DNA of 64,000 nt from a bacterium (GTDB lineage Bacteria; Cyanobacteriota; Vampirovibrionia; Obscuribacterales; Obscuribacteraceae): positions 10,647 to 74,646 of the forward strand of contig WGMS01000022.1 in the NCBI GenBank assembly GCA_016124935.1. Reading direction: 5' to 3'. A program made the position numbers and the translations under genes. Below are positions 3,255 to 18,127 of this stretch, one piece after another; within the stretch, counting starts at the first letter, position 1, and each line of letters starts with the position of its first letter. The notes under the pieces were generated by a model. The model was not told the DNA's origin and searched no databases. It saw nothing but the letters and a program-made list of their open reading frames with translations.

Positions 3255-4043
3255 TTAGAGTACTTTCGCTTCCTGGCGCAAGAGCTCGACCAGCTTCTTG
3301 GCCTGGGTGGAGGCGTCTCCGTCGAGGACGGTGCCCTGGGGGCGCGAGGCGGGCATTCTCATCTCTTTGAGGACGATTTTGCGTGCGTCGCCCCCTACTT
3401 TGCCTTTCAATCCGAGCGCTTCTGCGTTCTTGGTCTCGATTGGTTTGCGTCGCGCTGCCATCACACCTTTGATTGAAGGGTAACGCGGTTCGTTCAGTCC
3501 TTTCTGGGCGCTGATTACGCAAGGAAGCGAACCCTCCACGAATTCGTGGGCTCCTTCTATCTCTCTTTCAGCTTTGAACTTGCCGTCGGCCACTTCGAGA
3601 TTGACCACCATGGTGACCTGGGGCATGTCTAGCAATTCTGCCACTATGGACGGTACCTGGTTGTTGTCTCCACCGACACCTTGCTGACCCATGATTACCA
3701 TGTCGAAGCCACCGTCTTTGATGGCGGCAGCCAGAACTTCGCCGGTGCTCAGCGGATCGAGCCATTGCAAATCAGGATCGTTGATGTGGACGGCAGTGTC
3801 TATGCCGCGTGCCAGGCTGTCTCTGAGGACATCGGTCACCTCTGCGCCGCCGACGGAGAATACCGTTGTCTCTCCTCCGTGCTGCTCTTTGAGCTTGAGA
3901 GCCGCTTCTATGGCGAACTCGTCGTAGGGGCTGGTGATGAAACGAACACCATCGAGGGCGATATTTGTTTTGTCATCGGCAACTCTTATATTGGTTTCTG
4001 TGTCCGGTACAGATTTTACGCATACAGCAATCTTCAAAGCCAT
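3255..4043 (-). CDS. etfB: electron transfer flavoprotein beta subunit
   Basis: 262 aa. The N-terminus MALKIAVCVKSVPDTETNIRV and overall ETF-beta pattern fit, and it forms an operon with etfA (21-nt gap). Confidence 0.92.
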   Translation of the reverse strand: MALKIAVCVKSVPDTETNIRVADDKTNIALDGVRFITSPYDEFAIEAALKLKEQHGGETTVFSVGGAEVTDVLRDSLARGIDTAVHINDPDLQWLDPLSTGEVLAAAIKDGGFDMVIMGQQGVGGDNNQVPSIVAELLDMPQVTMVVNLEVADGKFKAEREIEGAHEFVEGSLPCVISAQKGLNEPRYPSIKGVMAARRKPIETKNAEALGLKGKVGGDARKIVLKEMRMPASRPQGTVLDGDASTQAKKLVELLRQEAKVL

Positions 4044-12733: not shown

Positions 12734-14305
12734 TTGACTGAAACGAAGACCGAATCCACCTCCAATGCAGATCGGCTCAACCCGATCAAAGAGACCTTCA
12801 AGGATGTAACCATACCCCGGTTGCTCAAATCCTCCTGGAGGGTTTTCGTCAGGGTACGCAATCTTCAAGGAACGAAAGCCGCTCTTCGGGTTTTTCCGAT
12901 CATCTGGATAATCGTTCGTCTCGTCAAAGGGCTCTCCAAATTCCATGCTGCCGAATACGAGCGTAATCGTGTTTCCGACCAGCCTGATGATGCCGAGGAG
13001 GCCGCCCTCACCAACGAAGAATACGACGAGTATCGAGAGTTGGGACGCTGGTTGACCAGGCAGCTCCACGATCTGGGTCCTACTTTTATCAAAATCGGTC
13101 AGACCCTCTCTACCCGGGCAGATTTGATGCCGCTGCCCGCTATGCTGGAGCTGGCTAAACTCCAGGAGAATGTCGATAAGTTCGAACTCTCCGTGGCCAG
13201 AGAGATAATCTTTCGAGAGCTGGGCGCTTATCCCGAGGATCTTTATGAGAGCTTCGAGACAGTTCCTCTGGCTGCCGCCAGCCTTGCCCAGGCGTATAAA
13301 GCCACCCTTCGGGACGGACGGGCTGTGGTAGTCAAAGTGCAGAGACCCGGTCTTGCCGGCATCATCGCCCAGGACATACAGGTTCTGGGGGCGGTGGCCG
13401 ATGAGGTGATGGAGTACCCCAACCTCTGCAGGCATACCGATTGGCCTGATGTGGTGGAAGAGTTCGCCAGGACTATTTTTGAAGAGATAGACTATATTCG
13501 CGAGGGAAGGAACGCAGATACCTTCAGGCGTAATTTTCGTAATTTCGAGCAGATTTATATCCCCCGAATCATCTGGAGGATGACCGGCCGTCGGGTATTG
13601 ACCGTCGAGTTCGTACCGGGCGTTCGGATTGACGATGTCGAAGCCATCGATCAGATGGGCCTATCGAGAGAAGAAGTAACCAAACTCGGTGCCAAATTCT
13701 ATCTTCGTCAACTGCTCGAGGATGGCTTCTTCCATGCCGATCCCCATCCGGGCAATCTCCGTGTGATGGAAGACGGACGCATCGGTGTCTTCGATTTCGG
13801 GATGGTGGGTAAGATCTCTCCTGATTTGAAGATGCATATGGTCAACGCTCTCATTCATGTCACCCAGAGAGACTACAGAGCCCTGGTGGATGATTTTGTG
13901 GGCATGGGTTTTCTCACCGAGGAGGTCGATAGAGATGCCCTCTGTGCCGACCTGACACCGATAATCGATACTCGATTCTCGGAAGGCATGAGTAAGGTCC
14001 GTTTTCGCAAGATGCTCTTCGACTTCTCCGACGTCTGCTACCAGTATCCTTTCCGCCTGCCTTCCGAATTCACCTATGTGATGCGCGCTCTGCTCACTTT
14101 AGAAGGGGTAGCCCTGACCATCAATCCCAAATTCAACTTCATCGACGCGGCCATGCCCTTTGCCCACCGGTTGCTCTTGCAGAACAATAAGATCATCCGA
14201 GAGGCGCTGTTTAAGGAAGTCTTCACCGATGGTAAGTTCAATAAACAGGCTGCGGTCAAGCTTATTCGGAACGCTGCCAGCCTGACCGGAACCTTGCTCG
14301 GCTGA
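12734..14305 (+). CDS. ABC1/UbiB-family atypical protein kinase (AarF domain)
   Basis: 523 aa with LGPTFIKIGQTLSTRADLMP, VVVKVQRPG and FHADPHPGNL motifs. The TTG start is uncertain. Confidence 0.85.
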   Translation: MTETKTESTSNADRLNPIKETFKDVTIPRLLKSSWRVFVRVRNLQGTKAALRVFPIIWIIVRLVKGLSKFHAAEYERNRVSDQPDDAEEAALTNEEYDEYRELGRWLTRQLHDLGPTFIKIGQTLSTRADLMPLPAMLELAKLQENVDKFELSVAREIIFRELGAYPEDLYESFETVPLAAASLAQAYKATLRDGRAVVVKVQRPGLAGIIAQDIQVLGAVADEVMEYPNLCRHTDWPDVVEEFARTIFEEIDYIREGRNADTFRRNFRNFEQIYIPRIIWRMTGRRVLTVEFVPGVRIDDVEAIDQMGLSREEVTKLGAKFYLRQLLEDGFFHADPHPGNLRVMEDGRIGVFDFGMVGKISPDLKMHMVNALIHVTQRDYRALVDDFVGMGFLTEEVDRDALCADLTPIIDTRFSEGMSKVRFRKMLFDFSDVCYQYPFRLPSEFTYVMRALLTLEGVALTINPKFNFIDAAMPFAHRLLLQNNKIIREALFKEVFTDGKFNKQAAVKLIRNAASLTGTLLG

Positions 14306-14583
14306 GCCGTCGGGATCGACCGTGAGCATCGTGATTACACGGATTTCATTTGTTGCGGAATGTATCAGCGGTTTGAAAAATTCCCGTTAAGTCCTTCTCC
14401 GTGTGGGTTTTTGGCTGTTTGCAACCCTTTCTGCTTGACAATCATTAGCTGAATATTGCTTGCTAAGGCAATAATGCTGATGTACCCTTTTCTAGCTGGT
14501 GAGAGTGCAAAAAGCTGCACCGGTCGAGGGACCCGAAGCTCCCACCGATTTCTCCTGTTGTTGATAACGGTTCTAAAAGATAG

Positions 14584-15306
14584 ATGAGTACAGCCCTTAC
14601 CACACCGGCGGCCATCACGGCGACCTGTTCCAACTGCGACAGTTTGATCGAGTCCATGGCCAAGTTCTGTGGAGATTGCGGTGAGATAACCGAGTTCGGC
14701 TCGGGAGTATTCCAGGCTATCTACGAGACCAGAGCAGTGCCGGAGTATTCCGCGCAGTTGCCCGAACCGGCCATCAACGCCCCATCAGATAATGAAGCCA
14801 GCCAGGTGTCCTACCATGAGCTGGCTTTATTAGAGTCTTACAGGCTTGCCAATCGTTCCGGCCAGGAGATGGAATGGGCGCCTACCCCGACGCCGACCAA
14901 CAATCAGGGTAGGGTAATCGAGCACAATAACGAACGGGTAGCAGCGCCGCGGTTCGCCCGGGAAGGTAAAGCCCAGGCAAAGCGGACCCAGCTGCCGGAG
15001 TCGCTTGTTAGAGAGATGCAGTCTCTCAATGCCCTGCTTCTCAGAGAGAGAATTTTTCTGGGTATTCACTGGACGATTTTTGTCACTGCCAATTTAATCG
15101 GATTCTATCTGGCTTCCAAATGTTATGCCGGTTTTGTCGGAGACGAAGTGACCAGATTCATCATGGCTCTTACCCCCCTTACTTTTATCAACGCCGTTGC
15201 CCTGGCTTGTCTTGCTCCCATCCGCGGTACCAGAAGAGAGATTGCTCGGGTAAAAGAGCGTATGCAGTATTTGAAAGTTCAGCTCGATTACGGCAATCTT
15301 ATATAG
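14584..15306 (+). CDS. zinc-ribbon protein with two C-terminal transmembrane helices (hypothetical)
   Basis: 240 aa with an N-terminal CSNC-x11-CGDCG zinc ribbon, an acidic/low-complexity linker and two hydrophobic helices (IFLGIHWTIFVTANLIGFYLA; FIMALTPLTFINAVALACLAPI). Its 3' end overlaps the RT gene's 3' end by 8 bp, convergently. Confidence 0.65.
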   Translation: MSTALTTPAAITATCSNCDSLIESMAKFCGDCGEITEFGSGVFQAIYETRAVPEYSAQLPEPAINAPSDNEASQVSYHELALLESYRLANRSGQEMEWAPTPTPTNNQGRVIEHNNERVAAPRFAREGKAQAKRTQLPESLVREMQSLNALLLRERIFLGIHWTIFVTANLIGFYLASKCYAGFVGDEVTRFIMALTPLTFINAVALACLAPIRGTRREIARVKERMQYLKVQLDYGNLI

Positions 15307-16255
15307 ACGGTATAGTCTGCTTGGCCTGGCTGATCAATCGGTTTAAAACCGTTCTGTATTTTTCCACCTCTTTGCTCTGGGGATCGAGCATGGAGAGAAT
15401 GGAGAGATGATTCTCCAGCTCTATTACCCGGTCGCGATAGCGCTCCGGTTCCACTTCGGCCTGGTGAAAAATAGCTCTTATCTTTCTGCGTTTTGCTCTG
15501 GGCAAGCTGGGTTTCTCATTTACCACCAGCCCCGAGACCATCTGCTTTGAATTATGTTTGTGGAATCTGGTTTTCTTGATATTCATGCGAAAGCCTTCCA
15601 CTTCGACAATATCGGATATGGTGCGCATATCCGCCAGAGAAAAATTGCCATTTCCGGAAATGGTGATATCGTCGCAATATCTGGTATACGACCAATCGTT
15701 GGCAGCGCAGAAATCAGCCAGGTCGGCGTCCATGGAATAGGCGATTAAATTGGCGAGATAGGGAGAGGATGGCGCTCCCTGGGGCAAACAGCCTATATAG
15801 GTGGAGAGTTCGGTCAGCACGCATGCAACGGGGAAAGAGAAGCCCAGTCTAAGATACAGTCCGAGCACCCGCTCGGACGAAATAGAGCCGAAGAAGTCTT
15901 CGAGGTCCGTATTGAATACGAATCTTTTCTTGCAGTGGGGTTGGGCATTGCTGAGGATGGACATACCCGGACGAAATCCGGTGCATTCATCCGGCAGGGG
16001 AATGTCGGCCAGAAATTTTTTGACTATCGCTTTCTGAACTTTCTTGAGCGGCTCCCTGGGCGCGGCCACGGTTCTCATATCGCCGGTGCTTTTCTTTTTG
16101 CGAAAGCGAGTGTAGAACTCTTCTGCTCTGTAAATAAATCTGAGTAGCTCGAACTCTGAAGAATCGAGGGCGTTCGCCAGTTGGGCAACGGTTTGAATGT
16201 CGTACATATAAGGCACCGGCAAAACTCCCGCTTCTCGACTATGAATTATTTGCAC
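15299..16255 (-). CDS. retron-type reverse transcriptase
   Basis: RT1 FRKKKSTGDMRTVAAP; RT2 LKKVQKAIVKKFL; retron NAxxH = NAQPH (15935-15949), followed by NTDLEDFFGSI; RT4 LPQGAPSSPYLANL; RT5 YTRYCDDITISG (YCDD at 15668-15679); RT6 GFRMNIKKTRF; RT7 QMVSGLVVNEKPSLPRAKRRKIRAIFH (VTG-like VSG at 15530-15538). The maximal ORF starts at GTG 16255. GTG 16216 (GGGAG 9 nt upstream) or ATG 16207 (MYDIQTVAQLANAL) are likelier starts. Confidence 0.85.
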   Translation of the reverse strand: MQIIHSREAGVLPVPYMYDIQTVAQLANALDSSEFELLRFIYRAEEFYTRFRKKKSTGDMRTVAAPREPLKKVQKAIVKKFLADIPLPDECTGFRPGMSILSNAQPHCKKRFVFNTDLEDFFGSISSERVLGLYLRLGFSFPVACVLTELSTYIGCLPQGAPSSPYLANLIAYSMDADLADFCAANDWSYTRYCDDITISGNGNFSLADMRTISDIVEVEGFRMNIKKTRFHKHNSKQMVSGLVVNEKPSLPRAKRRKIRAIFHQAEVEPERYRDRVIELENHLSILSMLDPQSKEVEKYRTVLNRLISQAKQTIPSI

Positions 16256-16560
16256 AAAAGTAGAAAACGGGGAAAGACTCCTTTACCCCGCTAGGAAGAA
16301 TGCGCTCAAGACGCTCGTTTCCTGCATTAGAAGACTCGTGCATAACACTACTTGAACCGAGTCCCAGCAATTGAATGGTTAGCTGGAAGTTACCTACAAC
16401 ATCTGGTTGACGAAACATCAACCTTCCCGCCGAAGCGGTCCAGAGTAAATAGAGTCTTCCCTCGTCTCTACGTTTCGTTGATTTTCAGTTGTTTGTACCG
16501 CCCTCAATCAACACACTGATCTAACTCTAAGTTGTAACGAATGTCAACGAACTTTCGGTT
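16256..16560 (-). ncRNA. candidate retron non-coding RNA (msr-msd) region; boundaries not determined
   Basis: ORF-poor leader directly 5' of the RT on the same strand. Verified hairpins on the - strand: 16477-16512 (GTTGATT/AATCAAC); 16450-16470 (TAGAG/CTCTA); 16427-16438 (CCGC-UUCG-GCGG); 16405-16423 (GGTTGA/TCAACC); 16333-16363 (GACTCG/CGAGTC); 16268-16290 (CGGGG-AAAG/CTTT-CCCCG). Candidate long-range a1/a2 pairing joins 16451-16461 to 16270-16281, 11 bp with one bulge. Confidence 0.4.
16519..16547 (-). promoter_or_regulatory. possible sigma70-type promoter for the RT leader
   Basis: Perfect -35 TTGACA (16542-16547), 17-nt spacer, weak -10 TTAGAT (16519-16524) on the - strand. It lies about 120 nt downstream of the gcvPB stop. 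Confidence 0.2.
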
Positions 16561-16666
16561 TCTTTAGCGGATTCACACGGGGAATATATGGGTATGGATC
16601 GCTGGAGATATCTATCGTCGAGGCACTGAATATGATGCCCGGTTCAACTGAGCGTCCTCAAGTTTC

Positions 16667-18127
16667 CTATTGATTCGGACTCCAGCGAAGATTCGGTTTT
16701 CTGGCTGCCAGAGCTTCATCCAGCTTCTTCACCGGTGTATTGTGCGGCGCATCCTTGACCGTATCCGGAGTCTCGATACTCTCTTTGTCGATCTCTTTCA
16801 TTATCGAAATGAATTGATTGAGCGTCTCTCTCGATTCGGTTTCGGTCGGTTCGATCATCATCGCTTCCGGTACCACCAGAGGGAAGTAGACTGTCGGTGC
16901 GTGTACTCCGAAGTCGAGCATGCGCTTGGCGATATGAGCAGTGGAAACTCCCCTTGCTTTCTGGGTGGAGCCGGACATGACGAATTCGTGCATACAGGGT
17001 TGGCTGTATGGAACCTTATAGTTTTCTTTGAGACTCTGCTTCAGATAGTTAGCGTTCAAAATAGCGTCTCTGGACACCTGAGAAAGCCCGTTAGCGCCGT
17101 TGGCCAGGATATAGCTATAGGCACGGACTAAGATGCCGAAATTGCCGTAGAAGCCTTTTACCTTGCCGATTGAATCGGGACGATTCCAATCGAACTGGAA
17201 AAGCTCACCGGTTTTCTTGATGGTCGGTTTCGGGAAATAGGGCTCCAGCTCTTTGATGGCTGCAACGGCACATCCGCCCGGGCCACCGCCACCGTGGGGG
17301 GTGGAGAAGGTTTTATGGAGATTGAGGTGACAGACGTCGAAGCCCATGTCTCCAGGGCGGACCAGACCCATGACCGCGTTGAGATTGGCGCCGTCATAAT
17401 AAAGCAGACCACCGGCTTTATGCACCAACTCTTGCACTGTCCAGATCTCTTCCTCGAAGAGTCCCAGGGTGTTGGGATTGGTCAGCATGATCGCAGCCAC
17501 ATCGGGACCCAGGGCTGATTTAAGGGCATCGATATCGACTAGACCTCTATCGTTCGATTGGATCTCGACCACCTCGAAACCAGCCATGGCAGCTGTGGCC
17601 GGGTTGGTGCCGTGGGCGGTGTCAGGTACTATCACCTTGGTACGCTTATGATCGCCGCGGGCTTCAAAATAGGCTCGAATCAGAAGGAGACCGGTGAGTT
17701 CTCCGTGGGCTCCTGCTGCCGGCTGGAAAGTGACATGGGGCAATCCGACGATTTCGGAAATCGCCTTTTCCAGATTCCAGATAAGCTCAAGGGCTCCTTG
17801 AATTTGATCTTCCGGTTGATGAGGATGCAAATCGCGGAATCCGGAAAGTCCTGCCATGGCGTCGTTCACCTTGGGGTTGTACTTCATCGTACAGGAACCA
17901 AGCGGATAGAAGCCGGTGTCGATGCTGTGATTGAGTTGACTGAGACGAACATAGTGTCTGACACAGTCTAACTCGCTCACCTCGGGCAGTTGAGCCGCCT
18001 CTTTACGAAGCAGTTCGGGCGGGACCAAGTCCTCCAGCTTCTTCTCCGGTACGCCGGGCTCAGGAAGAACTGCAGCGGTTCTTCCTTGGCTGGATTTTTC
18101 ATAGATCAACTTTTCCATTTTCATCAA
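16667..18127 (-). CDS. gcvPB: glycine dehydrogenase (aminomethyl-transferring) subunit 2
   Basis: 486 aa. The PLP-lysine context [19 protein letters not shown] and overall P-protein subunit 2 pattern fit. Confidence 0.92.

Follow-up and report, generated by a model that had tools for sequence, protein, structure and literature searches.

A probable retron msr-msd RNA with a long terminal helix upstream of a reverse transcriptase in the Obscuribacteraceae

The locus and its reverse transcriptase

Between positions 16256 and 16560 of the 64,000-nucleotide (nt) stretch of Obscuribacteraceae DNA analyzed here (the window), the minus strand carries a hairpin-rich noncoding leader upstream of the gene for a retron-type reverse transcriptase (RT). 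We consider it very probable that this interval holds the msr-msd noncoding RNA (ncRNA) of a retron, co-transcribed with the downstream RT (minus strand, ~16512 to 16260). An initial annotation of the DNA had offered the same reading, which now draws support from covariation in relatives, from the retron character of the RT, and from an msr core homologous to that of retrons linked to NDT-like effector genes.

The noncoding interval from gcvPB to the RT gene spans 16208-16666 (minus strand) when counted from an RT start at ATG 16207, and the predicted msr-msd RNA occupies 16260-16471 on the same strand, between a conserved promoter and the RT. Upstream lies the housekeeping gene gcvPB, which encodes the glycine-cleavage P-protein subunit GcvPB (16667-18127, minus strand). 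Downstream, the stop codon of the RT gene (15299-16207, minus strand; 302 amino acids [aa] from ATG 16207) is overlapped by 8 nt by a convergent gene for a 240-aa zinc-ribbon/transmembrane (TM) protein (14584-15306, plus strand). A housekeeping gene for an ABC1/UbiB-family kinase (12734-14305, plus strand) also flanks the retron.

Because searches with PADLOC, with NCBIfam, and against the PDB agree, we assign the enzyme, on the strength of its sequence, to the retron RTs. The PADLOC retron RT models match it at E ~1e-74; the top model is RT_II-A, with the scores for XIII, XI, XII, and III-A almost equal and with RT_Ec107-like ranked below the II-A, XIII, and III-A models. The best NCBIfam model is retron_St85_RT, at 215.3 bits against a cutoff of 235 bits, and the nearest solved structure is that of the retron Ec86 RT (E = 1.4e-39 in the PDB search), to which the window RT is 36% identical (E = 8e-46). 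RVT_1 is the sole domain found in the 302 aa, with no additional domain, and the recognizable motifs are NAxxH (as NAQPH), the catalytic YCDD, and VSG in place of the VTG present in most relatives of this RT. The list of open reading frames (ORFs) had given GTG 16255 as the RT start; we dropped it for ATG 16207, which is most likely the start codon because homologues run to ~295 aa and begin at codons that align with it.

Structure and conservation of the RNA

Relatives of the RT were drawn from 80 genome and 80 metagenome loci, and exact protein look-up supplied a few more. Homologues are many, the closest being in metagenome-assembled genomes (MAGs) of Candidatus Obscuribacterales, and a scan of metagenomes with an RT profile yielded at least three additional close relatives. 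The 300 nt preceding the RT are strongly conserved across 18 orthologous loci (RT identity 58-99%), and the conserved set comprises a promoter-like pair (TTGACA-N17/18-TAGAT(C)/TACAT(T)), a variable 5' hairpin, the two arms of a long-range helix (a1 and a2), and the hairpins SL1, SL2, and Hd. A second, paralogous ncRNA-RT cassette (in L020-L026, L028, L030, L031, and L165, with the RT at 4001 or 6001) always lies directly 3' of LigD on the same strand (Ku-LigD in L165), and the same MAGs often carry both the gcvPB-side and the LigD-side cassettes. Sequences of this more distant kind, whose RT always follows Ku-LigD, form group 2. The ncRNA tracks the RT and not the upstream gene, being present whether gcvPB, a P-loop nucleoside triphosphatase (NTPase), or LigD stands upstream.

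A putative promoter precedes the element, with a -35 hexamer TTGACA at 16542-16547 and a -10 hexamer TAGATC at 16518-16523 (both minus strand), from which transcription is predicted to begin near 16512. In clade-1 and group-2 relatives, TTGAC(A/T), a 17- to 18-nt spacer, and TAGAT/TACAT stand at a constant distance from a1, the -10 position reading TAGATC, TACATT, TAGATT, or TATAAT; a simple consensus promoter scan did not return this promoter, owing to the imperfect -10 hexamer. Two further motifs conserved in clade 1, GTGAATSCGCTAA (16564-16576) and TATAT (16584-16590), lie ~20-45 nt upstream of the -35 hexamer, at 16564-16590 of the minus strand, and may serve the retron promoter as an UP element or as a site for a regulator to bind. 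The predicted transcript opens with a 5' leader hairpin, P0 (GUUGAUU/AAUCAAC; 16477-16512, minus strand; inverted repeat I14); clade-1 relatives have a hairpin of other sequence at this position, and some group-2 relatives have none.

The core of the element is a terminal helix between a1 (16441-16471, minus strand), which contains the purine element GGGAAGACUC (16452-16461), and a2 (16260-16290, minus strand), which contains GAGUCUUUCCC; both arms appear in the minimum-free-energy (MFE) fold as well as in the consensus from RNAalifold. The 29 pairs of the window helix comprise an outer segment from G16471-C16260 to A16465-U16266, followed by C16464-G16268 and G16463-C16269; a middle segment from G16461-C16271 to U16451-G16281; and an inner segment from U16449-A16282 to U16442-G16289, closed by G16441-C16290. 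The middle segment is the 11-base-pair (bp) pairing that the initial annotation had put forward as the a1/a2 repeats of a retron. That pairing is real and covaries, but its length was understated, since it is the core of a helix of ~29 bp. The end of the helix lies 52 nt from the RT start codon.

Folding strength depends on where the unit is bounded. The full a1/a2 unit (16255-16475) folds at -81.7 kcal/mol, with z = -4.56 and 0/200 shuffles as good, though the wider interval 16230-16670 does no better than shuffles (z = -1.6). The MFE fold of 16255-16475 contains six local hairpins, the number reported previously, and the C(UUCG)G stem, CCGCUUCGGCGG, is found at 16427-16438 as described. When a 31-nt query was slid along 16256-16560 and compared with dinucleotide shuffles, the best long-range duplex reached -35.0 kcal/mol, versus -23.9 +/- 2.7 kcal/mol in shuffled sequences, none of which came as low (0/300; z = -4.1).

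The a1/a2 helix of ~29 bp is maintained in relatives through compensatory changes. RNAalifold was run on two sets independently, one of 11 clade-1a and one of 13 group-2 sequences. The first run returned a 24-pair terminal helix together with SL1, SL2, and Hd, and the second returned the same inner a1/a2 pairing (CUCUG/CAGAG and beyond) with SL1 and SL2, so that both groups show one layout of a1/a2, SL1, and SL2. In clade 1a, 11/24 of the a1/a2 pairs show compensatory changes and 93.9% of the cells are paired; for the whole structure the paired fraction is 96.2%, versus 42-54% in a slid control that shifts the 3' partners by 1-3 columns. The covariation score of 0.235 exceeds the 0.152 of the shuffles (0/500 as high), but these sequences are mutually related, so the shuffle counts overstate significance; the slid control is unaffected by this and is the more reliable. 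Among 19 representatives, matched a1 and a2 arms form duplexes with a mean of -26.8 kcal/mol, versus -15.2 kcal/mol for mismatched arms (0/20000 permutations as low), and this test is conservative in that automatic anchoring misplaced a2 in L021, L087, and L128, all of which were retained.

The initial annotation could not place a branching G with confidence. We propose G16440 (minus strand), the first nucleotide 3' of a1, as the candidate branching residue that would supply the 2'-OH primer, with G16441 as the alternative; it would face G16291 (minus strand), the opposing G of a UAG motif just before a2. The proposal is made because the junction Gs are invariant and their arrangement matches the "two opposing G residues" in the retron ncRNA scheme of Mestre et al. 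(PMC7736814). Specifically, CUCUG-G-ACCGC, directly 3' of a1, is invariant in 20 relatives; UAG|CGGGG before a2 is invariant in clade 1a; and in group 2 the G and C of (U/A/G)(A/G)G|CAGAG are invariant. By analogy with Ec86, from which the start of the complementary DNA (cDNA) is taken, the first templated base is predicted to be A16292, adjoining G16291.

Between the junction Gs lie two msr hairpins, SL1 and SL2, and three hairpins farther 3' (all minus strand). SL1 (CCGC-UUCG-GCGG; 16427-16438) has a 4-bp stem, seen in both RNAalifold and the alignments, that is invariant among relatives, whereas its loop differs in sequence and in length (3-5 nt). SL2 (GGUUGAUG-UUU-CGUCAACC; 16405-16423) has an 8-bp stem and, based on its conservation and on the design of Ec86, is predicted to be the stem-loop that the RT recognizes. 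It is an invariant 19-nt hairpin, GGUUGAUGUUUCGUCAACC, in clade 1, occurs once in the window, and recurs upstream of RTs only 35-50% identical with compensatory stems such as GGUCGAUG..CGUCGACC and GGCUGAUG..CGUCAGCC. Hb (CCAGC/GCUGG; 16364-16386), in the variable msr/msd region, comes from the MFE fold; its arms are retained with one-sided changes in clade 1a, and its covariation support is weak. Hc (GACUCG/CGAGUC; 16333-16363, pairing 16363-16358 with 16338-16333) is kept as a hairpin with differing arms (GGUUCU/AGAACC, GGCUU/AAGCC, or GCAAGAG/CUCUUGC) in 10/11 clade-1a sequences, those in which the segment could be delimited. Finally, Hd (AGGAA..GCGU-loop-GCGC..UUCCU; 16293-16323) is the conserved 3' part of the msd. 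It corresponds to RNAalifold helices 4 and 5, which are paired in 100% and 94.5% of cells, and its GAGCG...GCGCA is invariant across clade 1, with UUCCUAGCGGGG coming next. In one subclade (L013-L017 and L029), SL1 is longer and a further hairpin, CCAUUAAGUAAUAAUGG, immediately precedes a2 (~150 nt upstream of the RT); L013 has no G between a1 and SL1.

Kinship with NDT-linked retrons

Retron-Eco1 (Ec86), a type II-A3 retron (Mestre et al. 2020, PMC7736814), is a natural point of comparison. Its locus reads effector, ncRNA, RT and sits within a prophage, and a query with the Ec86 msr-msd sequence matched 48 E. coli genomes at 100% identity. As in the window, the Ec86 ncRNA immediately precedes an RT encoded on the same strand, and its terminal a1/a2 helix brings the G that directly follows a1 to face the G that directly precedes a2. 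In Ec86 the second hairpin of the msr, GGAUGUUGUUUCGGCAUCC, has an 8-bp stem and a UUU loop like those of SL2 and is identical to it at 15/19 positions; the four differences fall in two base pairs, and pairing is kept, as expected of compensatory change. According to a review (PMC6868368), RT-Ec86 binds such an 8-bp stem and UUU loop via its C-terminal region Y. The two RNAs also differ in several respects. The a1/a2 helix is ~29 bp in the window and 12 bp in Ec86 (~2.5 times); SL1 is a 4-bp tetraloop hairpin in the window and a long stem in Ec86; the msd consists of three short hairpins in the window and of one long stem-loop in Ec86; and the additional 5' hairpin P0 is a feature of the window that Ec86 lacks. 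In Ec86, moreover, the effector gene is immediately upstream and overlaps the ncRNA, within the prophage, while the window has no NDT effector.

A covariance model, R1, built from 20 Obscuribacterales sequences and confined to the 52 positions of the msr core, has one match in the window, at 66 bits. It also matches over its full length in L018, L019, and L032 (Myxococcales, Hydrogenedentes, and Fimbriimonadia MAGs), at 31.4, 28.2, and 18.5 bits, with E-values of 1.6e-5, 1.1e-4, and 0.035 in a 666-kb search and of 6.5e-7, 4.2e-6, and 1.4e-3 when those three loci alone are searched. Every one of these matches is flanked by the RT on one side and an NDT-like gene on the other; tblastn recognizes such a gene at each of the three loci, and PADLOC calls NDT_II-A at L019 and L032. 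The RTs of these loci are 40-47% identical to the window RT, their full msr core (the end of a1, the G, SL1, and SL2) fits R1, and L018 and L019 share the window's G|G and (U/A)AG|CA... junctions. In contrast, the msd of these NDT-linked relatives is a long stem-loop, unlike that of the window, and an NDT-like gene lies directly upstream where the window has gcvPB. Because R1 matches L018, L019, and L032 over its full length, we place the window ncRNA, judged from sequence and predicted structure, in the same structural family as the type II-A NDT-linked retrons. We favor the view that the cassette descends from the NDT-effector type II-A retron lineage, although no NDT gene is present here.

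What should be made of the Rfam results? A scan of 14000-17500 returned no relevant match at E <= 10, but the Ec86 retron locus, scanned as a control, returned no match either. The negative is uninformative for that reason, and Rfam appears to lack coverage of this class of retron RNA.

Orphan retrons (e.g., the Retron-Eco5/Ec107 branch, PMC7736814) likewise consist of msr-msd and RT without a recognizable associated effector gene. The window RT belongs to a different lineage from that branch, and the cassette differs from orphan retrons in that it keeps to fixed sites on the chromosome throughout an order-level clade and exists in two paralogous forms. Our literature search found no paper treating both retrons and Melainabacteria, and the SPIRE retron survey makes no mention of Cyanobacteriota or of orphan retrons.

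Proposed mechanism, rival readings, and inheritance

In total, these observations are consistent with a model in which the RNA is transcribed from the conserved sigma-70-like promoter and a1 (16441-16471) pairs with a2 (16260-16290) into the ~29-bp helix that covariation shows. Formation of this helix would set G16440 opposite G16291 at its inner end. Based on Ec86 biochemistry, we predict that the RT would bind SL2 through its 8-bp stem and UUU loop (16405-16423), prime on the 2'-OH of the branching G, and copy the RNA from A16292 toward the msr. The product would be a branched RNA-DNA molecule, the multicopy single-stranded DNA (msDNA), of roughly 100 nt if synthesis stops as in Ec86.

Several points weigh against this interpretation, besides the mutual relatedness of the aligned sequences. 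The mechanism, with its predicted msDNA, transcript ends, and branch point, is drawn from homology. The retron_St85_RT score falls under the family cutoff, and the RT has VSG where most retron RTs carry VTG. The opposing G is replaced by A in the subclade L013-L017 and L029, and both junction positions are A in L032. In the Ec86 locus R1 reaches only SL2, its top match there, and that match is marginal (8.7 bits; E = 0.094 within the locus). The msd side consists of Hb, Hc, and Hd where retrons typically have one long stem-loop, and the cDNA predicted here (16292-16396, plus strand) is weakly folded as DNA (-11.9 kcal/mol; z = -1.2). Finally, no NDT homologue turned up when the window's 64 kb and all the Obscuribacterales loci were searched by tblastn with the Ec86, L019, and L032 NDT proteins, a search that does recover NDT-like genes 5' of RTs more distantly related; and no known effector adjoins the RT, whose neighbors are gcvPB and the convergent zinc-ribbon/TM gene, the latter without a PADLOC hit.

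Could the RNA, then, be a remnant that has ceased to template DNA and, as a structured 5' leader bound to the RT, controls the translation or stability of the enzyme? The missing effector, an msd without a long stem, and the weak fold of the predicted cDNA would all suit such a leader, as would a helix that ends close enough to the RT start codon to place the structure within the RT leader and an apparently vertical inheritance at fixed loci, unlike that of mobile defense systems. Yet every element needed for priming is under selection (the invariant RT-binding hairpin, the junction Gs, and the covarying a1/a2), the RT retains the catalytic YCDD and the retron NAxxH, and the most conserved part of the msd side lies just 5' of a2, where cDNA synthesis would start. 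We judge a remnant leader to be improbable on this evidence.

Less probable still is a switch built on the purine element, in which GGGAAGACUC would alternate among 16270-16281, 16330-16337, and 16294-16299, or a2 would fold on itself as a local hairpin at 16268-16290. The initial annotation had described GGGAAGACUC as complementary to three downstream sites and had raised the local hairpin as a competing fold. In the window the complementarities are there: GGGAAGACUC is complementary to 16267-16280 and to 16330-16337 (repeats I1 and I5), and a switch is energetically plausible, with -13.4 kcal/mol for 16330-16337 and -9.5 kcal/mol for 16294-16299. Among relatives, only the pairing with 16270-16281 is conserved (-12.7 to -17.9 kcal/mol in 11/11 sequences); that with 16330-16337 holds at -12 to -13 kcal/mol in the window and its two nearest relatives and drops to between -0.2 and -7.3 kcal/mol elsewhere, and that with 16294-16299 is weak throughout. 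Moreover, hairpin Hc, which is conserved, uses part of 16330-16337 in its 3' arm. The local stem (CGGGG...CCCCG) is likewise present in the sequence, ending 13 nt before GTG 16255 as noted previously, but it is not conserved: it consists of two segments of a2, is 72.7% paired in relatives with no compensatory change, and does no better than slid controls (60-91%). The alternative folds proposed on its account are not upheld, and neither group-2 nor NDT-linked relatives have an equivalent structure. We regard a switch of this kind as very unlikely.

That the hairpins arose by chance in an intergenic spacer, or belong to a 3' untranslated region or terminator of gcvPB, has in its favor the shuffle-like fold of the wide interval and the Rfam blank (to which the equally blank Ec86 locus gives no weight), but this reading is scarcely credible and is effectively refuted by the comparative data, given the covariation, the strong fold of the correctly bounded unit, the persistence of the element upstream of the RT where other genes replace gcvPB, and the conserved promoter between gcvPB and the element.

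The msr-msd interpretation is the one that we carry forward, and it raises the question of a partner gene. The retron occupies a conserved chromosomal neighborhood, in which gcvPB is followed by the ncRNA-RT cassette and then by the convergent zinc-ribbon/TM, ABC1/UbiB, and RNase PH genes. The gap from gcvPB to the zinc-ribbon gene is variable in relatives (L004-L012 and L164), resembling a small variable island, and contains, depending on the genome, a 700- to 790-aa P-loop NTPase with weak mad8 and nSTAND3 similarity, a 250-aa protein plus a 635-aa protein without a family match, or a PD-T4-6-like Ser/Thr kinase with leucine-rich (LRR) repeats. Neighbors differ among relatives, and no gap gene is a constant partner of the RT. 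We also considered the zinc-ribbon/TM gene, whose product has an N-terminal zinc ribbon (a sub-threshold Pfam match), apparent C-terminal transmembrane helices (two, judged by eye), and no PADLOC or NCBIfam match. It was set aside as an effector: it stands last in a conserved RNase PH-ABC1 cluster, is separated from the RT by another gene in L164, and is not found beside the group-2 paralogues. It is probably a host gene. The surroundings of the window retron show no sign of a prophage or mobile element; the Ec86 locus sits among phage genes.

How has the cassette been passed on? In distant LigD-side pairs, RT identity (43-53%) is at or above LigD identity (36-44%), so the RT is at least as conserved as its neighbor. 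In each of the two groups RT identity correlates with the identity of the neighboring housekeeping gene at r = 0.96, a rough measure in which the pairs are nonindependent. From these comparisons the ncRNA-RT cassette appears to be vertically inherited at fixed Obscuribacterales sites. We speculate, tentatively and with doubts of our own, that the two paralogous effector-less cassettes, one between gcvPB and the RNase PH-UbiB-zinc-ribbon cluster and the other directly after Ku-LigD, are domesticated retrons: vertically inherited, with NDT lost, and with an msDNA that acts with an unlinked partner or in a nondefense role, e.g., DNA repair. If so, they would not be conventional mobile abortive-infection systems.

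The RNA itself is of a known kind, a retron ncRNA of the II-A/Ec86-like lineage; what is worth following is its effector-less, syntenic, and duplicated state in the Obscuribacterales. Mestre et al. (2020) posed the question of what orphan retrons do (PMC7736814), and a cassette lacking an effector, kept in synteny across an order and in two paralogous copies, would offer a tractable case in which to ask it. The Ec86-type SL2 (8 bp, UUU) and G/G junction extend to nonphotosynthetic relatives of the Cyanobacteria and to several other phyla, and R1 can be used to find further members of the RNA family. A natural a1/a2 helix of ~29 bp is also a candidate scaffold for DNA production in cells.

The msr-msd of a previously unannotated retron is now defined, with exact boundaries and a proposed branching G. 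In the public annotation it is masked by an ORF call. The deposited "hypothetical protein H6677_05355" (L002/L161, P0001; 366 aa) begins within SL2 and runs through the ncRNA, the window equivalent being 16208-16420, and this call is over-extended.

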